A stretch of 57,336 nt of DNA, filler included, from an uncultured Clostridia bacterium (lineage in GTDB: Bacteria > Aerophobota > Aerophobia > Aerophobales > B3-G15): the NCBI GenBank assembly GCA_964482715.1. It is 8 parts of 8 records of this genome, joined end to end, with 100 filler letters (N's around TTAATTAATTAA, not from the genome) between each part and the next. Parts side by side here need not be neighbours in the genome. Positions count along the whole stretch, not along the records: positions 27,075 to 34,253 come from CAYZYX010000049.1; 7 more parts are not named here. One strand, written 5' to 3'. Below the pieces are notes generated by a model, which saw nothing but the letters and a program-made list of their open reading frames with translations, searched no databases and was not told the DNA's origin. Shown piece after piece: positions 1 to 34,253 of the stretch (positions within the stretch are counted from its first letter, which is position 1; each line of letters starts with the position of its first letter). Position numbers and translations under genes: made by a program.

Positions 1-70
1 GGGAAACGGGATTCGAACCCGCGACCCTCAGCTTGGGAAGCTGATGCTCTACCACCTGAGCTATTCCCGC
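1..70 (-). tRNA. tRNA-Gly (CCC), 3' end cut by window edge
   Basis: Reverse complement GCGGGAATAGCTCAGGTGGTAGAGCA-TCAGC-TTCCCAA-GCTGA-GGGTCGCGGGTTCGAATCCCG; anticodon CCC, T-loop TTCGAAT. Confidence 0.95.
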
Positions 71-12164: not shown

Positions 12165-12619
12165 TGAAGATAGCTATTGGCTGTGACCATAATGGACTTG
12201 AGTTAAAAAATATAATTTGTGAGTTTTTAAAAGAAAAAGGGGTTGAGTTTAAAGATTTTGGGACAATGACTAAAGATCCCATTGACTATCCTGATATAGC
12301 CAAAGTAGTGGCGGAGGCTGTTGTCAGGGGCGAATTTGACAGAGGAATTTTAATATGTGGCACAGGTCTGGGAATGGCTATAGCAGCTAATAAGGTAAGA
12401 GGTATACGGGCTGCTACTTGCCATGATGTTTATTCTGCCGAAAGAGCAAGAAAATCCAACAATGCCCAGATAATGACAATGGGAGCTCAAGTTATAGGGC
12501 CTGAACTTGCCAAGATGCTTGTTGATGCCTGGCTTCGTTCCGAGTTTCAGGGTGGGCGTTCCGCACCCAAGGTGAAAAAGATAATGCAAATTGAAGAGGA
12601 AAATTTTTCCAGGAGCTAA
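12164..12619 (+). CDS. rpiB: RpiB/LacA/LacB family sugar-phosphate isomerase (probably the D-erythrulose-4-phosphate isomerase, DerI-like, subgroup)
   Basis: IGCDH.G, DYPD, CGTGLG, ERARKSNNAQ, GGRSAPKV. Confidence 0.9.
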   Translation: MKIAIGCDHNGLELKNIICEFLKEKGVEFKDFGTMTKDPIDYPDIAKVVAEAVVRGEFDRGILICGTGLGMAIAANKVRGIRAATCHDVYSAERARKSNNAQIMTMGAQVIGPELAKMLVDAWLRSEFQGGRSAPKVKKIMQIEEENFSRS

Positions 12620-27074: not shown

Positions 27075-27092
27075 AAGTAAAATAGTAAACCT

Positions 27093-27114
27093 TTGTGACC
27101 ATATTGTGACTATA
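27093..27114. repeat. tandem 11-bp direct repeat, candidate tyrosine-integrase arm-type sites
   Basis: TTGTGACCATA-TTGTGACTATA, ~115 bp from the tRNA-Lys breakpoint. Confidence 0.5.
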
Positions 27115-27228
27115 ATTTGCACAAAATGGCATAAAATAACGTAACTAATGTAAATAATAAAATCTTGAAAATGAGGATCTGGAGAAGATTTTGGCTTTTA
27201 GGGTAGGTTTTAGAGAATTAGCTGGATT

Positions 27229-27269
27229 GGATTAAGAGTCCGTTGCTCTACCAGTTGAGCTAACAGCCC
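27229..27269 (-). pseudogene. 5' half of tRNA-Lys (CTT), interrupted in the anticodon stem
   Basis: GGGCTGTTAGCTCAACTGGTAGAGCA-ACGGA-CTCTTAA-TCC then unrelated AATCCAGCTAATTC; no T-arm and no 3' acceptor strand. Confidence 0.88.
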
Positions 27270-27273
27270 GTAG

Positions 27274-27349
27274 GGTGAGCGGGGGGACTTGAACCCCCGA
27301 CCACTGGGGCCACAACCCAGTGCTCTAACCAGGCTGAGCTACGCTCACC
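27274..27349 (-). tRNA. tRNA-His (GTG)
   Basis: G-1 + GTGAGCG acceptor, CTGGG-TTGTGGC-CCCAG anticodon arm, GGTTCAAGTCC, C73; CCA not fully encoded. Confidence 0.96.
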
Positions 27350-27375
27350 ATAAATGAATTATTTCGCCGTTTATT

Positions 27376-27403
27376 ATATTATTGAATTTACACCGGAAGT
27401 CAA
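27376..27403 (-). promoter_or_regulatory. promoter of the tRNA-His/tRNA-Lys operon
   Basis: TTGACT-16 nt-TAATAT on minus strand. Confidence 0.5.
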
Positions 27404-27955
27404 TATTACATAACTCCAGTTTCGGAAAAAATTCCAGAATACCTTGAGGTAAGCTCATCTTATTGATTTAAAATTGGTAAAAGTGGATTTAAGAGGTGAC
27501 AAAGAAGAAAAAATATGATAAAAAGGGTCACGGAGAAAAGAAACTTCATGAATTTTTCTGGAGGTTTTTAAGTAGATGGCTGACAGTAAAAAAGAGAATA
27601 TCCTGGGAAAATCCATCACCCTCCTTGGTGGTATATAGTTAGGAGAGTTTTCCATAGAAGGTAAAAAATATTTTGGGTCCAAAAGAAAAACCCTTTAAAA
27701 GATGTGCTTCTTGATATATTTGGCCTTCCTCCCTTTAATTTCGTAAAGGATAAGAGGGTTTGTAGTATACAACAAAAAATAAAAAATTTTTCTGATGTGA
27801 ACCTTCAGGTCCCACTCGGGAAATTAGGTAAAAAAATATTTCAGTATACCTGGACTATTGAGAAATTATATGGGGTAAAGTATTAAATTTTTTGGAGAAG
27901 TGTGCCCCAAAAACGGGCTTTTTTATGGTTTTAACTTTCTTAATAACATAGACCC

Positions 27956-28189
27956 TTATGTCTCCAGGATTTCTACTATTACCCTTTTGTTTTGTCTGTT
28001 GGCAACCGCTCCCATGAGAACTCTTAAAGCATTGGCTATTTTTCCGTTTTTTCCTATTATTTTACCCAGATCCTCACGTGCAGCCGATATTTCCAAGATC
28101 ACCGTACCCCCACCTCTTACCTCTCTCACCTCAAGCTCATTAGGGCTATCTACAATATGTCTGAGGATACGTTCCACCAATTCACGCAT
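27956..28189 (-). CDS. khpA: KH domain RNA-binding protein KhpA
   Basis: IVD.P..., D.GKIIGKNG..A.ALR; 77 aa. Confidence 0.9.
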   Translation of the reverse strand: MRELVERILRHIVDSPNELEVREVRGGGTVILEISAAREDLGKIIGKNGKIANALRVLMGAVANRQNKRVIVEILET

Positions 28190-28289
28190 TTATTCCTCCT
28201 TTTACCAAAATACAATTTTTCAGAACCATTTTCCATGAGGAATAAACCAGTATCTTTATTTTCTCCTGCTTAAAGGATTTGAGGTGTAA

Positions 28290-28320
28290 ATTATACTACC
28301 AAACTTTACCTCCATGTCAA
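28290..28320 (-). promoter_or_regulatory. promoter upstream of khpA
   Basis: TTGACA followed by overlapping TAGTAT/TATAAT (16/19 nt spacing) on minus strand. Confidence 0.5.
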
Positions 28321-28331
28321 CTTGCCGCATT

Positions 28332-28564
28332 CTGACATTGGGACAGTTTTTACCTATACCTTTCGCTTTAGACTCCCGGGTATCTCCCAGGAAGTGTCCC
28401 TCGCAAGAGGTTTATTTCACCTATTATTTTAGTGCAGCAGGTCTTTCCTTTTTGTGAGTGCAAAAGTTTCTACTATGGCGAAGCTTTCTGCTCGCCAAAA
28501 AAGCTTGCTTGCAAGGTATCTCCGGGAGCCTTTGTCTTCATGAAAAAAAGTGTCCCAATTTCAG
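28332..28564. mobile_element. MITE-like element, copy 1 (233 bp, longest)
   Basis: TIRs CTGACATTGGGACAGTTTT / AAAAGTGTCCCAATTTCAG (17/19); flanks GCCGCATT / GCCACATT (7/8 direct repeat); homologous to 42763-42932. Confidence 0.8.
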
Positions 28565-28584
28565 GCCACATTTTGTCAGAAAAA

Positions 28585-29829
28585 TCAATATTTGCCATAT
28601 TCATAGGCAGCTTCGAACATGGCAATCACATTTTCAGGAGGAACATCGGCAAGAACATTATGAATCTGATTAAATACAAATCCTCCATCCTTTGCAAAAA
28701 TCTCAATTCTCCTCTTAACGTCGTCTTTTACTTTCCCGGGAGTTGCTTTGGCCAAAATCTGTTGGGTATCACATCCTCCTCCCCAGAAGGTAACATACTT
28801 ACCAAACTCTTTTTTAAGTCTTTCCGGTTCCATATTTGCTGTCTGAGTCTGAACCGGATTTAATATATCAACTCCTGCATCTATTAAATCAGGGATCAGT
28901 TCATAGATAGATCCACAGGAATGAAGAAATACTTTACAGCTACTGTTTTGATGTACATAATCCCACATCTTTTTATATCGCGGTTTGAAAATCTCTCTGA
29001 AAACCTCGGGAGACATGAATGGACCTGTTTGGGAACCAAGATCATCACCAAACTGTAGAATATCAACCCATTCACCCACTCCCTTTACCACCCTCTCCAG
29101 AAGCCTTAAATTCCGCCCAACGAGAACATCAAGTAACCTTTTTACCCCCTTCTTATCAACATAGATATCACACAGAAAGTTTTCCATTCCCCGTAAAAAA
29201 GTCCCTGTTTCAAACAAATTACAACCAACTGCCAGCATAACAGCGCAGTCAGTTGTCTCGTAAAGCTGTTTTATAGTATCAATAAACATTTTGTAATCAT
29301 TGTCATTAAATATGTCAAGATGCCAGGGAGGGGTGGGAATTGCCCACATGTGTTTAACCACATCTTTTTCGTCAATCTTCTCTGGAATTGCATCAAGATC
29401 TCCATATACCCAGAAAGTCTGATCAACATAAAGTGAACTTTTTGGTTTTTTGCCCAGAACTAAACCATCTCTATTTTTTAGTAAAACTGTTGAATTTTCA
29501 TCGATCTCAATGTTAAGATATTTCGGAATTAAACACTTTGAACCATCATTAAGAGTCCATTCTCGCCAATCATCTTCAGATTTTAGAAAGGCCTGTCCTG
29601 CATCAATAGCATCCACATGAAAAAGATCTCGAATTTCCTTTTCGGGGTAAGCAAGCTGTTGGACAAAATCATACATTCTGGCAAGTCCTCGATTTACACC
29701 CAATTTTTTGCGTAACTTGTTGTAGGTTATGGTAGCAATACCGGTGGAACGCATTGCTCCGAAGTCAATGGGAACCCTATCCGGTTCTTTGTGTTCAATA
29801 GCCATTTTTATTCTTTCTCTTGAGGTCAT
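28585..29829 (-). CDS. uroporphyrinogen decarboxylase-like / MtaA-CmuA methyltransferase family protein
   Basis: MTSRER...H.EPDRVPID, LRGMENF, GDDLG.Q, LHSCG, NPVQ, FWGGG.DTQ, HNV..DVPPEN. Confidence 0.88.
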   Translation of the reverse strand: MTSRERIKMAIEHKEPDRVPIDFGAMRSTGIATITYNKLRKKLGVNRGLARMYDFVQQLAYPEKEIRDLFHVDAIDAGQAFLKSEDDWREWTLNDGSKCLIPKYLNIEIDENSTVLLKNRDGLVLGKKPKSSLYVDQTFWVYGDLDAIPEKIDEKDVVKHMWAIPTPPWHLDIFNDNDYKMFIDTIKQLYETTDCAVMLAVGCNLFETGTFLRGMENFLCDIYVDKKGVKRLLDVLVGRNLRLLERVVKGVGEWVDILQFGDDLGSQTGPFMSPEVFREIFKPRYKKMWDYVHQNSSCKVFLHSCGSIYELIPDLIDAGVDILNPVQTQTANMEPERLKKEFGKYVTFWGGGCDTQQILAKATPGKVKDDVKRRIEIFAKDGGFVFNQIHNVLADVPPENVIAMFEAAYEYGKY

Positions 29830-29879
29830 AACCTGTCACCTCCTCAAAATGAACTCAAGTAATTTATAAAAATTATAAT

Positions 29880-30329
29880 TTAGCTACCTTCATCATAAAT
29901 TCTTTTTTCGCCCTCGAGTTTCTTTATTCTGGTGACATCCTGCGTAACTTCAACACATCCAAGATATTGACCATTTTTATTTCTCACCGGGAAATACTTA
30001 ATATAAACTAATTTTCCCTCATAATTTATCCAGAATTCGGCTGAATCCCTTTTACCATTTCTAAAATCCTGAAGAATTTTATTGACAATGTGTACACTCT
30101 TTTGAGGGTGGCATTGTTGAACTTTCCTACCAATTATGGCTTTTGCTCGAGGGAAGATTCTTCCTTTAGTCTGGCTAAAATACCTTACTTCATCTTTCTT
30201 ATCCACAAAAGTAATGTCCACAGGAAGAGTGTTAAAAATTGCCTCTATCTCCTCCTTCGTGAGAGAACCTGTCTCAAAAGAAATTAAATCCTTTTTATTG
30301 TTCTCTTCTCTACCAAAAATCTCGCTCAT
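29880..30329 (-). CDS. PAS domain protein (DUF438 C-terminal type)
   Basis: TG.L...EI.AIF.TLPVDITFVD..D.V.YFS, CHP.KS, FWI, EVTQD. Confidence 0.85.
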   Translation of the reverse strand: MSEIFGREENNKKDLISFETGSLTKEEIEAIFNTLPVDITFVDKKDEVRYFSQTKGRIFPRAKAIIGRKVQQCHPQKSVHIVNKILQDFRNGKRDSAEFWINYEGKLVYIKYFPVRNKNGQYLGCVEVTQDVTRIKKLEGEKRIYDEGS

Positions 30330-30915
30330 TTTTTTCCTCCTTTTTAACTGCTTCTCCAATTCTAAAGCCCAGTTTGTGACTGAGTTCAAGGATTTCTGGA
30401 TGTTCTAAGATTTCTCCTTTTTGATCAATTCCCTTAATGAGAAGTTCCTCTTTATAATCAATATCAATAACTTTAAAGAAAGACTTAATGGTTCTTACAG
30501 CCCCGTCAAAAAGATAGGAAAATGTTGTTCCTCCAAGTGACAAAAAACCACCTATTCGGTGTTTTTTTTCAAAAGATTTCTCCTTAATAAGATACTTTTT
30601 TGCCCAGAAGGGTTGACATCGATCAATAAATGCCTTTCCTTTAGCAGGTATCCCCATAAAAAATATAGGGGAGCCGATGATAAGGCCCTGGGTGGTAATA
30701 AGTTGAGGATAAAAACCCTGCATGTCATCATTTATCACGCATTTCCCGGTTATGTGGCAGGAAAGACACTCTCTGCAGGGTTCAATATGAAATTCCTGTA
30801 ATCGAACAAATTTACCATCTACATTAGCGTCGGCTAAACCTTTTAAACAATGCTCAAGAAGCAATTCTGTATTACCATTTTTCCTTGGAGAACAGGAAAT
30901 TACTAAAACGGCCAA
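30310..30915 (-). CDS. flavodoxin family / iron-sulfur flavoprotein (NADPH-dependent FMN reductase)
   Basis: SPRKNGNT, CRECLSC...G.C.I.DDMQ, SPIFF, FIDR.Q. Confidence 0.9.
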   Translation of the reverse strand: MAVLVISCSPRKNGNTELLLEHCLKGLADANVDGKFVRLQEFHIEPCRECLSCHITGKCVINDDMQGFYPQLITTQGLIIGSPIFFMGIPAKGKAFIDRCQPFWAKKYLIKEKSFEKKHRIGGFLSLGGTTFSYLFDGAVRTIKSFFKVIDIDYKEELLIKGIDQKGEILEHPEILELSHKLGFRIGEAVKKEEKNERDFW

Positions 30916-30946
30916 TATTTATCTCCCTCTTAACTAAATTTGCCGT

Positions 30947-31921
30947 CTAACTCAAATTTAGTTTCCTGTTTCTTTCTTCAAGCAAAGTATCAATAGCCTC
31001 GATATCTTCTTGAGAAAGCACCCAATCACCGGCCGGCGCGGTTTCTTCAATTTGTGAGGGATGTCTGGCACCAACAATGGCTGCTGTTACCTCAGGTCGT
31101 CTTAAAACCCAGGCAATTGCAAGCTGAGCCAGGGTTTTGCCGTTTCTTTCAGCAATTGAGCGAAGACTCTCCACCAACTCCAGATTAATACTTAATTCCG
31201 GCTCTTGAAAATGTGGATCCTCTCTTCTATGATCATCTACAGGCAAGTTTTCCATCCGTTCTCTGGTAAATTTTCCGGTTAGAAGACCTTTATACATAGG
31301 ACTGTAAACAATTACACCAATATTATTTTCTGAACAGAAATTGAGAAGTTCTTCTTCAACCCCACGATCAATCATGTTGTATGGTGGCTGAAGGGAAGCT
31401 ACAGGATGAATAGGCTGAATACGTTTTAGCTGTTTTACACTAAAATTAGACACCCCTGCATAACGGATTTTACCTTCTTTAACCAGATCCGCTATAGTTT
31501 GCCAGGCTTCTTCAATATCTTTGTCCGGTATGGGCCAGTGAATCTGATAAAGATCAATAACTTCAATATTCAGTCGCTTCAAACTTGCCTCCACTTCCCT
31601 TAGAATACTCTCCCTTTTAAGACAGTTTGATATCTTCCTTCTTTTATTCCATACAAGGCCACATTTGGTAGCAATAATTGGCCTTTCCTTCATCCCCTTT
31701 ATCGCCCTGCCCACTATTTCTTCTGAGTGACCAAGTCCATACACAGGTGCTGTGTCTATCCAGTTAACCCCAAGGTCAATGGCTCGGTAAATGGCAGCTA
31801 TTGACTGTTCATCATCTTGAGGTCCCCAGCTAAACTCCCATCCACTTCCTCCAATAGCCCAGGTTCCAAGCCCAATAGTAGTGAGGTTGAGGTCTGTGTA
31901 ACCTAATTTTTTTGTTCTCAT
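30947..31921 (-). CDS. aldo/keto reductase
   Basis: GLGTWAIGG, DTAPVYG.G.SE, IDLYQIHWP, GVSNF, YSPM..GLLTGK. Confidence 0.95.
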   Translation of the reverse strand: MRTKKLGYTDLNLTTIGLGTWAIGGSGWEFSWGPQDDEQSIAAIYRAIDLGVNWIDTAPVYGLGHSEEIVGRAIKGMKERPIIATKCGLVWNKRRKISNCLKRESILREVEASLKRLNIEVIDLYQIHWPIPDKDIEEAWQTIADLVKEGKIRYAGVSNFSVKQLKRIQPIHPVASLQPPYNMIDRGVEEELLNFCSENNIGVIVYSPMYKGLLTGKFTRERMENLPVDDHRREDPHFQEPELSINLELVESLRSIAERNGKTLAQLAIAWVLRRPEVTAAIVGARHPSQIEETAPAGDWVLSQEDIEAIDTLLEERNRKLNLS

Positions 31922-32031
31922 TATTCATCTCCTTCACATAATATCTTCCTTGGCAATTCTCCTATTTATGCTTATCCAAACCATTATCTGGAAACATTTT
32001 AATAACAGAAGTAAAGGTGATACTGATTTTA

Positions 32032-32816
32032 TTAAAGCTTACTTAAATACTCAAAGGCGGAAAGAATGGCTTTTGCTCCTTCGCCACAAGCTACGATGAT
32101 CTGTTTAGCTGGTAGAGAACCTATCTCAATAAAAACTCCGGCTACTGCAAAGTTTCTTTCTTTTCCTTTCTTCAATACGGTGATACCTTTAACAAATTTA
32201 TCACCAAATATTCTTTTAACCTCGGTTTCAGTGAGAAAAACTACTTTACCACTATCTAAAGCCCTTTCCACCATTACAGGATCAGCACTAAGTTCAGGAA
32301 GAATCTCGATGACATAGATCTTCCTGGCAATTTTTTATAAGCTGAAGTGTGGCATCTAACCCCGCATTCCCACCTCCTACGACAGCTACATCCATTCCAG
32401 CAAAAAGAGGTGCGTCACAGGTTGCGCAATAAGTTACACCTCTATTTTTAAATTCATCTTCTCCCTGCACTCCTAATTTTCGGGGTATCCTTCCGGAGGC
32501 AACAATCACGGCTCTGGATTCATATTCCCCTCTATAACCTGTAATCTTGAACCTGTTATTTTCCTTTTTTGACCCGAGTTACAGTCTCTCCTTCTATTAT
32601 CCTGACACCAAACTGTCTTATGTGGTCAACAAACTTCTTAACAAGTTCTGAACCAGTGATAAATTGATATCCAGTGTAATTTTCTATATCCGAGCTTAGG
32701 GTTGCCTGTCCCCCGATATCTTTGGTGATTACCAGAAGGTCCATTTTTTTCCTGGCTGCATATATACTAGCCGTAATTCCGGCAGGCCCTGCACCTATTA
32801 TTATCAAATCTTCCAT
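32032..32816 (-). pseudogene. trxB: thioredoxin reductase / AhpF-like pseudogene
   Basis: GAGPAG, CATCD, GGGNAG and KQI..A.GEG spread over three ORFs; +1 frameshifts at 32565-32570 and 32331-32336; T..PG.FAAGD segment missing near 32110. Confidence 0.88.
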
Positions 32817-32830
32817 TTCAAAAAAATCCT

Positions 32831-33074
32831 TTAAGATGGTATTCCCAACTCTTTTGAAATGGCCTCTCTATCAAATCCAACTATTATCTTTCCTTCAATA
32901 TCAACTACGGGAACTCCCATCTGTCCCGGTTTTTTTATCATTTCGCTTAGAGCATTCCTGTCCTTGCCGACATCCAGCTCCTCAAAAGGAATATTCCTCT
33001 CCCTAAGAAAATTTTTTACCATAGCACAGTAAAGGACAGGTTGAAGTAGTATAAACTTTTACACTTTTTGTCAT
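32831..33074 (-). pseudogene. glutaredoxin (NrdH/YruB-like), frameshifted in the CPYC motif
   Basis: MTKSVKVYTTSTCP / YCAMVKNFL...GQMGVPV..I.GFD; one extra T at 33031-33033. Confidence 0.85.
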
Positions 33075-33095
33075 ATTTTCTCCTTTTTTACAAAG

Positions 33096-33585
33096 TTAAC
33101 GCTCACCAAGCTGACGATCAAGCATAAGTAATCCTCCACCGGCATCGCCTATAAGTCTTAATTTTTCCACAATTTCGTTGGTAGAGGCTTCTTCTTCCAC
33201 CTGTTCATTGACAAACCACTGAAGAAAAACTTCGGTAGCATTATCATCTCCTTCTTTAGCTACACGAATAAGTTCATCTATCATCCGAGTTACTTTTCTC
33301 TCGTGTTGATAAGCATCTTCAAAAGCTCTGAGAGGAGATTCCCACTCAGATGGAGGAGTTTCTATCTCAGAAAGTAAAACTCTACCACCTCTGGAAACAA
33401 GATAACTGTATAGTTTCATTGCGTGCTCAATTTCTTCTTTTGCCTGCTCCTGCATCCAATGAGCGAAACTTTTTAGATTTTTGGATTCAAAATAGGAAGC
33501 CATAGACAGATAAAGATAAGCCGAATAAAAACTCTCTGTTTATCTGTCTATTTACCACCTGCGCCATCTTTTCTTTTATAGTCAT
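33096..33585 (-). pseudogene. ftnA: non-heme ferritin, frameshifted near the N-terminus
   Basis: MTIKEKMAQVVNRQINRE / FYSAYLYLSMASYF, EE.EHA, LQWFV.EQVEEE; one extra T at 33527-33531. Confidence 0.88.
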
Positions 33586-33615
33586 TTTACATCCTCCATT
33601 GTAGCGATTTTTTGG

Positions 33616-33645
33616 AGTTCAGGAGGAGAAAACTCCCCCTGAACT
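33616..33645 (-). promoter_or_regulatory. 13-bp stem-loop between dfx and ferritin
   Basis: Minus strand AGTTCAGGGGGAG-TTTT-CTCCTCCTGAACT (one G-U pair), no U-tract after it. Confidence 0.55.
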
Positions 33646-33655
33646 TTCTCCCTGA

Positions 33656-34030
33656 TCAACTCTTCCATAAACCATGAATATTGCAGTATTCTCGAACAAC
33701 TATATTTTCAGTTTCAACGGTAAACTCCACTTCTGGTTTCTCGCCTGGCAAAAGAAATTTTCGTTGAGCAACAGCGTCTGCCATAATTTCAATCCATTCA
33801 ATGTAATGGTCTTCTTGCATAGGATGAGGAATAGAACCCACTTTAACTCTTGCCTTTTCCTTTGATCTCTCCACGACTGGGACATGCTTTTCTTTTCCCT
33901 GATCTTCAGTCTTCTCTTCCATGAGTATCATGGGTTTTCCGCAACAGACAAGCTGTCCCTTTCCGCTGTGGATTACCTCCACCATATTTCCACAAATTTC
34001 GCACTTATAAACTTGAAGTTTTTCGGTCAT
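33656..34030 (-). CDS. dfx: desulfoferrodoxin (superoxide reductase)
   Basis: [23 protein letters not shown]...HYIEWI, YCNIHG. Confidence 0.96.
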
Positions 34031-34117
34031 TTAAAAACCTCTTCTTTATTTTTTCCACATTTTCCAATAAAGTCTAAAGATCTTTTTTCTTCTACTTGAT
34101 CTGTCAAAATCTGCAAA

Positions 34118-34176
34118 CTGAGGTTAGGACACTTTTTTGCCTATATCTTCACGAGAAAAAAATGTTCCGATTCCGG
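34118..34176. mobile_element. MITE-like element, copy 3 (59 bp, degenerate, ends only)
   Basis: CTGAGGTTAGGACACTTTT...GCCTATATCTTCACGAGAAAAAAATGTTCCGATTCCGG aligns with both ends of copy 1. Confidence 0.55.
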
Positions 34177-34253
34177 TTACAAGAGCTAAAAACTAAGCCT
34201 GATCATTGAAAATTACCCTTACTTCTTTCACATCCCAGAGAGGCTCAAGCCTT

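Follow-up and report, generated by a model that had tools for sequence, protein, structure and literature searches.

A genomic stretch of 57,336 nucleotides (nt), referred to below as the window, was analysed from an uncultured Clostridia bacterium that GTDB places in the phylum Aerophobota (GenBank assembly GCA_964482715.1). At positions 27075-27269, a transfer RNA (tRNA) gene, tRNA-Lys(CTT), breaks off beside its anticodon loop and runs into a tail that is shared with broken tRNA genes of other genomes. Comparison of these sequences suggests that the segment is very probably the left attachment junction (attL) of a genomic island inserted by a tyrosine integrase, or of the remains of such an island. 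The attachment site of the free element (attP) would carry the 5' half of the tRNA gene, and the family appears to be common in Aerophobota. An earlier note on this DNA had taken the break for the junction of an integrated element of the rarer polarity. This reading is now backed by 17 other tRNA 5' halves, each broken at tRNA positions 39-43 and followed by a homologous tail and repeat motif. It is also backed by a clade of integrases in which 20 of 25 are followed by an intact tRNA gene in the same direction, and by a single contig on which both ends of a 22.7-kb island are present.

The broken gene and its empty site

The window consists of eight contigs chained by N44-TTAATTAATTAA-N44 linkers and is not one molecule. 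The contig with the broken tRNA-Lys spans 27075-34253, and the junction lies at its start. The features of the junction are read on the minus strand (Table 1). An intact tRNA-His(GTG), whose G-1 is encoded in the genome at 27349, is followed after a spacer of 4 nt (CTAC, 27273-27270) by the tRNA-Lys(CTT) fragment. Read from 27269 down to 27229, these 41 nt comprise the acceptor strand, the D arm, the 5' anticodon stem, the loop CTCTTAA and TCC of the 3' stem. After 27229 the tRNA reading is lost, and the next letters are AATCCAGC.... The earlier description of a tRNA-Lys(CTT) that is canonical for 41 nt and lies 4 nt past tRNA-His thus agrees with the sequence and with the results of ARAGORN and Rfam. 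The fragment is not a tRNA gene in itself, since ARAGORN called no tRNA at this site and the score against the Rfam tRNA model (20.3 bits) is under the gathering score of 29.

For comparison we used 30 Aerophobota genomes, centred on a Candidatus Aerophobetes metagenome-assembled genome (MAG). The same MAG gave the best genome match (76% identity) to the UroD-like protein encoded near the junction. Genomes, contigs and loci of the comparison are given below as G, C and L numbers. In the relatives, the native tRNA operon consists of all or part of the series Pro-Arg-Gly(TCC)-His-Lys(CTT)-Gly(GCC)-Leu(TAG). The three relatives closest to the window, G021, G022 and G023 (92-94% identity over tRNA-His and the tRNA-Lys half), have the empty site, where the His-Lys(CTT) pair is intact. 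The fragment itself is 90-95% identical to the 5' half of the intact tRNA-Lys(CTT) that stands beside tRNA-His in relatives (window-query positions 82-122).

Only 154 nt are visible after the break. The tail leads into a cluster of putative arm-type sites, which on the minus strand is composed of TTGTGCAA (an inverted, imperfect copy), 2 nt (TT) and ATAGTCACAATATGGTCACAA, the last holding two direct GTCACAA repeats 11 bp apart. On the plus strand these are the tandem TTGTGACYATA repeats that had been reported about 115 bp beyond the break and shortly before the contig end. They were found at 27093-27103 (TTGTGACCATA) and 27104-27114 (TTGTGACTATA), 114 nt from the break, with the third copy, TTGCACAA, at 27117-27124 and the end of the contig at 27075. 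The conserved segment that begins behind the cluster and is cut by the contig edge continues for about 110 nt in L038, L040 and L036. A Logan contig of the public run X5 also extends past 27076 with the letters of L040, as in relatives, which indicates that the contig ends inside a repeated module and fits a break of the assembly in a repeated arm. No terminator-like site was found between the tRNA-Lys half and the contig end.

The tail and its repeats behind other tRNA halves

The tail of the window recurs behind the 5' halves of other tRNAs in other genomes. It follows a tRNA-Lys(TTT) half in G021 (82% identity over 193 nt), Met(CAT), Phe(GAA) and Ser(TGA) halves in G016, a Phe(GAA) half in G018 and a Gln(TTG) half in G021, and there is 94% identity to G025 over the last 77 nt. 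When eight junctions were aligned, six rows matched from the tRNA start through the repeats. The exceptions were the Phe row of G018, which has a shorter tail, and the truncated Gln row. Immediately after the break, some 20 nt varied between junctions.

The 20-nt repeat motif, searched with up to two mismatches, had 27 matches in 10 of the 30 genomes, and none when reversed as a control. A sister variant, GGACAC-N5-GGACAC, in which both half-sites are changed together, had 53 matches in 21 of the 30 genomes (control, 2). A census of the comparison loci and the window gave 72 distinct motif sites. Among the 44 sites without an integrase, 18 stood behind a tRNA 5' half broken as described above; they include the window and three G016 contigs of the same sequence, and the 17 outside the window come from 11 tRNA species. 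Break and motif were 116-121 nt apart in 16 of these 18 junctions, the exceptions being 66 nt (L036) and 107 nt (L154). In the window the distance is 118 nt, and the gene breaks at position 41, 3 nt past the anticodon loop. Because identity to the intact gene ends at this point and all 18 junctions break at positions 39-43, the loop is the probable region of strand exchange.

These regularities bear on whether the junction could be an assembly chimera, that is, a His-Lys contig misjoined to a repeated island arm from elsewhere. The contig does end inside a multi-copy module, as might be seen after such an error. However, the join falls exactly where it does in the whole family (position 41, 118 nt from the motif), about 20 nt at the start of the tail are junction-specific and unlike the tails behind other tRNAs, and no evident shared word is long enough to have misled an assembler. 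We consider a misjoin very improbable.

In bacteria, group I introns occur beside the anticodon loop of tRNA genes, and tRNA-Lys(CTT) is broken beside this loop. The break might thus mark a tRNA intron (group I or II), or else a split tRNA whose 3' half is encoded elsewhere. The earlier note had held both to be less likely, and the comparison bears it out to the point that we give them virtually no credence. No Rfam intron model matched the tail of the window (E up to 10) or the full tail of L038 (E up to 1), and ARAGORN called no tRNA in the 4,160 nt of L038, which spans and passes the tail. In addition, a near-identical tail stands behind at least five tRNA species, uninterrupted copies of the affected tRNAs are found in the same genomes, and the tail ends in direct repeats of a protein-binding type that are common to the ends of integrase genes.

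The integrase clade and the rebuilt tRNA

The motif overlaps the last codons of the genes for a clade of tyrosine integrases, whose proteins end in ...VTIWSQ or ...DTIWTP. The integrases match Pfam Phage_integrase (PF00589, E 2e-41) and have N-terminal Int_N/SAM-like domains. We found 27 integrases with the motif over their C-terminal codons, 25 of them with at least 120 nt of downstream DNA; L071 and L164 have too little downstream sequence and stand outside the 25. In the 20 cases mentioned above, the intact tRNA starts 53-79 nt after the motif, and its native operon partners come next, as in Met-Val-Asp-Phe-Thr or Lys-Glu-Val. Two integrases (L054 and L092) have a reversed tRNA 3' piece downstream, which is the classical polarity, and three (L045, L091 and L079) have nothing recognisable there.

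The arm-site repeats are translated as the C-terminal peptide of the integrase, VTIWSQ or DTIWTP (L064, L066, L067, L049 and L070-L078). Both half-sites change together between the variants (GTCACAA to GGACAC), which points to conservation of the DNA repeat and not of the peptide.

A maximum-likelihood tree was built from 26 of the 27 integrases, one row being too short. In this tree, the two Aerophobota integrases of classical polarity and one of unknown polarity form a subgroup (support 94/80) that is nested among the 5'-polarity integrases (enclosing nodes 91/94 and 86/89). The tree has a midpoint root only, and the placement of three long branches is unsure. Judging from these sequences, we claim only that a single clade of integrases, 55-65% identical to one another, includes both polarities, and claim no order of events.

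Broken and intact copies were also found together in single genomes. Nine genome/tRNA pairs have a broken half with its tail and also an intact copy behind an integrase: Leu(CAA) in G001 and G004, Met in G008, Gln in G021, and Met, Phe, Ser(TGA), Gly(TCC) and Arg(CCG) in G016. In G021, the broken and intact copies of tRNA-Lys(TTT) share 60 nt upstream with one letter different, and the intact copy lies at a contig start. Both island ends are present on contig G016:C183, where a broken Gly(TCC) half (35510-35470) is followed by a 118-nt tail and the motif. After a further 22,726 bp come an integrase, the motif, the spacer and an intact Gly(TCC)-His-Lys(CTT). The complete 22.7-kb island occupies 12743-35470 (L177, L174), and its genes are mostly co-oriented with the tRNAs. 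The cargo consists of an XRE regulator, an HsdR_N-like nuclease, a Schlafen/AlbA_2 protein, a HerA-like ATPase, a D12 methyltransferase, an Eco57I/MmeI-like restriction-modification enzyme, an SNF2-PLD helicase and ParA, and the island is of a defence type.

The complete island also bears on the possibility that a transposon, an insertion sequence (IS) or a miniature inverted-repeat transposable element was inserted into the tRNA gene. In favour of this, the motif has many copies, often at the ends of contigs, and in the window one end alone is visible. In contrast, the motif is found in the ends of integrase genes and not in those of transposases, the insertions always occupy one tRNA sublocation in one orientation, and the complete relative is bounded by a tRNA half and an intact tRNA, with no inverted repeats. 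The sole transposases seen (IS630-like in L040 and one in L063) interrupt the arms and do not own them. An origin by transposition is therefore regarded as extremely improbable.

Two further observations concern the integrase-bearing loci. In five of the 18 broken-half rows, all from G016 (L039/L062, L060, L063, L068 and L174), an integrase gene truncated in mid-gene stands ahead of the tRNA 5' half. The truncation lies near the SK.G..R.IP region, 0-25 nt upstream of the tRNA start. The gene lacks its catalytic half, and the arm motif is gone together with most of the spacer, which looks like recurrent deletion in tandem arrays. The same truncation was seen ahead of an intact tRNA-Ser in L082 (G021). 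Secondly, an intact tRNA-Lys(CTT) with CCA is present at 12405-12600 of G016:C183 (L065/L023), and the two direct repeats of the motif follow 84 nt after it. The stretch before the repeats ends in a partial tail and the inverted copy, and no integrase was found within 12 kb downstream. This locus could be a remnant, or else a member that uses another crossover site.

A model of the attachment site

An attP was modelled from the two kinds of copy, with the integrase flank of the intact ones placed next to the tail flank of the broken ones. In the circular form, the 3' end of the integrase gene would be followed by the arm-site motif, a spacer of 53-79 nt, the tRNA 5' half as far as the anticodon loop, some 118 nt of tail and the motif again. 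The anticodon stem-loop would serve as the core, and strands would be exchanged within the 7-nt loop or next to it. Two junctions would result from such an exchange with the host tRNA gene. At one end, the host's own 5' half would be joined to the tail; the window would present this end, in the order promoter, tRNA-His, tRNA-Lys(CTT) 1-41, tail and motif. At the other end, an intact tRNA composed of the island's 5' half and the host's 3' half would lie directly behind the integrase gene.

The repeats are likely to be arm-type sites for the N-terminal domain of the integrase. The earlier note had suggested such a role, and the reconstruction fits it well, as the repeats stand on both sides of attP, about 100-120 nt from the core, with one of them over the last codons of the integrase gene. 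The arm on the tail side corresponds to the 116-121 nt between break and motif, and that on the integrase side to 53-79 nt plus 41 nt.

State of the proposed island in this genome

The pattern of the family suggests that the island and its integrase are still present in the genome of the window, together with a rebuilt tRNA-Lys(CTT). That the tRNA is rebuilt at the far end was one of two options in the earlier note, and the one that the family pattern favours.

Several observations weigh against a live island here. No integrase, second junction or intact tRNA-Lys(CTT) was detected in the 57-kb window with ARAGORN and tblastn, the interior of the island lying beyond the contig end, and a live island is here a prediction of the model. 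No other member that targets tRNA-Lys(CTT) was found among the 30 genomes, and the comparison loci all come from fragmented MAGs. A pattern for the far junction (the motif, 45-75 nt and the first 14 nt of tRNA-Lys) had one match in JGI metagenomes, which is ascribed to chance, and this pattern and the exact 21-nt junction each had 0 matches in viral contigs. Fossils exist in the family: the Gln member of G021 has a tail that is cut inside the motif and an integrase with an internal deletion, and the Lys(TTT) tail of G021 is followed by an aminotransferase and a glycine-hydroxymethyltransferase-like gene, which are not obviously mobile. Promoters were also scarce on the island side. In the 20 spacers, the best sigma-70 match had a mean of 7.95/12 versus 7.63 in shuffles; a clear sigma-70 pair was present in the spacer only for tRNA-Leu members, and 16 of the 20 spacers had no recognisable promoter.

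Other searches gave the following results. The JGI match was rejected as the far junction, since it lies inside a tRNA-Lys(TTT)/tRNA-Lys(CTT) pair that has no integrase. Loose contig ends at 27229 with a tRNA-Lys 3' half were also rejected; their acceptor strand does not fit this gene, and they were assigned to other organisms. The exact 41-nt tRNA-Lys half had 0 matches in the genome contig collection, and tblastn detected no integrase remnant in the window, including the 1.2 kb upstream of tRNA-His. When contigs of four public runs were aligned to 27075-28400, none covered 27165-27209 in X2, X3 and X5, and the depth there in X1 was 1.8.

Part of this evidence would also suit a relic, in which an integrated island and its rebuilt tRNA later disappeared or became scrambled, the tRNA-Lys(CTT) remnant is dead and AAG is read by tRNA-Lys(TTT). 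The truncated tail and deleted integrase of the Gln member and the housekeeping-looking genes after the Lys(TTT) tail, both in G021, agree with it, as do the decayed integrases that precede His in G022 and Ser in G020 and G018 and the fact that nothing of the island is visible here beyond 154 nt. On the other hand, the tail and the motif are well kept, as the identities to G025 and G021 indicate, and an intact copy stands behind an integrase in nine genome/tRNA pairs. Moreover, the gene is still intact in G021, G022 and G023, which indicates that the insertion is probably recent. A relic is therefore quite improbable in our view, and an island of the present family remains the preferred reading of the junction.

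Transcription of the tRNA genes around the proposed island

A promoter-like site, TTGACT-16-TAATAT, lies about 27 nt upstream of tRNA-His. It is likely to be the promoter of the host His-Lys tRNA pair, on weak evidence: its score is 9/12, the regional count of such sites is not above that of shuffles, and a similar TTGACT-17-TATACT site precedes tRNA-His in G023 (L021). At the island's opposite end, the rebuilt tRNA would be transcribed from the island.

A wider scenario may be drawn from these arrangements, which we consider unlikely as a whole. The Aerophobota integrase clade would have flipped its polarity, and its islands would lie in line in tRNA operons. The host promoter would read through the 5' half into the island, and the regenerated tRNA and those downstream would depend on transcription from the island side. 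Such dependence is suggested because 16 of the 20 spacers have no recognisable promoter, and a switch of polarity within the clade is conceivable because the anticodon stem-loop core is symmetric. If this were true, the host's supply of the tRNA would be tied to retention of the island, a form of addiction.

Relation to known integration systems

The 5'-fragment polarity is documented as a minority. Table 1 of the Islander paper (PMC4383910) lists 159 islands with a 5' fragment versus 3760 with a 3' fragment, 3919 in total. The same source includes an anticodon-centred attP class, and its configuration filter admits islands with an upstream 5' fragment. For the 5' polarity, PMC6563490 cites Zhao and Williams 2002 together with four archaeal studies. 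The usual 3' case is described by Phage_Finder, which cites Zhao and Williams 2002 (PMC1635311), and the SNJ2 paper concerns 3'-distal integration (PMC5861418). Islands with a 5' fragment are thus a known, minority kind (4% in Islander), of which the window is probably a further case, and the polarity assigned by the earlier note is indeed the rarer one in these sources.

The Islander class with 'reversed target gene orientation' (Hudson, Lau and Williams), as far as PMC4383910 presents it, likewise involves tyrosine-integrase islands in tRNA genes, with the displaced 5' part upstream, the intact gene at the integrase end, and tandem arrays. It differs in that an entire integrase clade of a single uncultured phylum here has the 5' polarity as its rule and that the target Lys(CTT) is second in a tRNA pair. 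Of the features by which Islander recognises islands, a same-orientation fragment upstream of the cognate full tRNA gene was seen in the nine relatives' pairs and on one single contig, the window having the 5' fragment. An end fragment (tRNA positions 1-41) broken at a known crossover sublocation, which may be anticodon-centred or in the T-stem, and an empty site in related genomes (G021, G022 and G023) were also found. A tyrosine integrase gene, a further such feature, was seen in relatives, where it stands immediately ahead of the regenerated tRNA. As in an attP of the lambda type, both arms carry short direct repeats roughly 100 bp from the core, and members of the family have these in common.

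The archaeal 5'-distal elements (Krupovic and Bamford 2008, Krupovic 2010, Gaudin 2014 and Cossu 2017, as cited in PMC6563490) share the minority polarity. They differ in having archaeal hosts and different integrase families, whereas the present family is bacterial, with PF00589 and Int_N/SAM-like domains.

A testable attP model emerges from the present comparison, with an anticodon-loop core, arms of about 120 nt and a direct-repeat motif of GTCACAA or GGACAC. It explains the half-tRNA as a normal product of site-specific integration. The junctions can be used to delimit islands, including defence islands, in fragmented Aerophobota assemblies, and they explain contig breaks at such sites. 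As far as the literature compared goes, new detail lies in the 5' polarity across the clade, in the constant geometry of the arms and in the arm site within the last codons of the integrase; the literature search was not aimed at the motif or at Aerophobota islands, and we make no claim that these points are unpublished. A clade in which the 5' polarity is the rule and two classical members are nested offers a system in which to study how polarity is set and how the regenerated tRNA is transcribed.

In the classical case, reportedly treated by Reiter et al. in 1989 and Williams in 2002, phages and islands that integrate into tRNA genes are said to carry the tRNA 3' part in attP and to use an anticodon-loop sublocation. 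Such elements resemble the present family in the crossover at the anticodon stem-loop, in an arm-bearing attP of about 250 bp beside the integrase gene and in the varied tRNA identities within one integrase subfamily. The classical-polarity loci L054 and L092 and the IMG/VR contigs L120 and L129/L130 have the same attP layout and GTCACAA motif as the 5' family. In contrast, classical elements carry a reversed 3' half in attP and the present family a forward 5' half relative to the integrase gene, so that the island lies upstream of the regenerated gene and would have to provide its transcription. In the virus-collection contigs L120 and L129/L130, the attP layout is unintegrated and contains a reversed tRNA 3' half. 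L129 and L130 are the two ends of one IMG/VR contig of 9,928 nt; these ends overlap, and the contig is probably circular. Its integrase is distant (26% identity).

Feature coordinates and other observations

Table 1. Features at the tRNA-Lys(CTT) junction, in window coordinates
Feature	Position	Strand	Basis
tRNA-His(GTG), intact, host	27273..27349	minus	ARAGORN 27273-27348; Rfam tRNA 66.6 bits
tRNA-Lys(CTT) displaced 5' fragment, host, tRNA positions 1-41; probable B-side of attL	27229..27269	minus	Sequence and relatives
Anticodon loop CTCTTAA, probable strand-exchange (overlap) region	27232..27238	minus	Inferred from break positions
Probable island-derived tail, 118 nt, core-proximal part of P' arm	27111..27228	minus	Homology to other tails
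Arm-type site cluster (putative)	27093..27124	minus	Motif comparison
Further conserved P' arm segment, start only, ended by contig edge	27075..27092	minus	Relatives' sequence
Promoter-like site	27376..27403	minus	Sigma-70 match (see text)

Some observations concern the surroundings of the junction and single loci of the family. The stretch of about 1.2 kb between tRNA-His and the UroD-like gene (27350-28584; gene at 28585-29829) has no convincing open reading frame. It has no similarity to the relatives' sequence upstream of tRNA-His, including the integrase remnant in G022. The island arm in L040 (G025:C188 1-900) is interrupted by an IS630-like transposase gene, and in L063 (G016:C137) a reverse transcriptase of the group II intron type and an IS-like gene lie just inside the island.

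A further tRNA gene stands at the very start of the window (1-70, minus strand). The window start cuts its last few bases, so that ARAGORN missed it. Its loop reads CTTCCCA (anticodon TCC), and its T arm and 3' acceptor strand match the tRNA-Gly of relatives.

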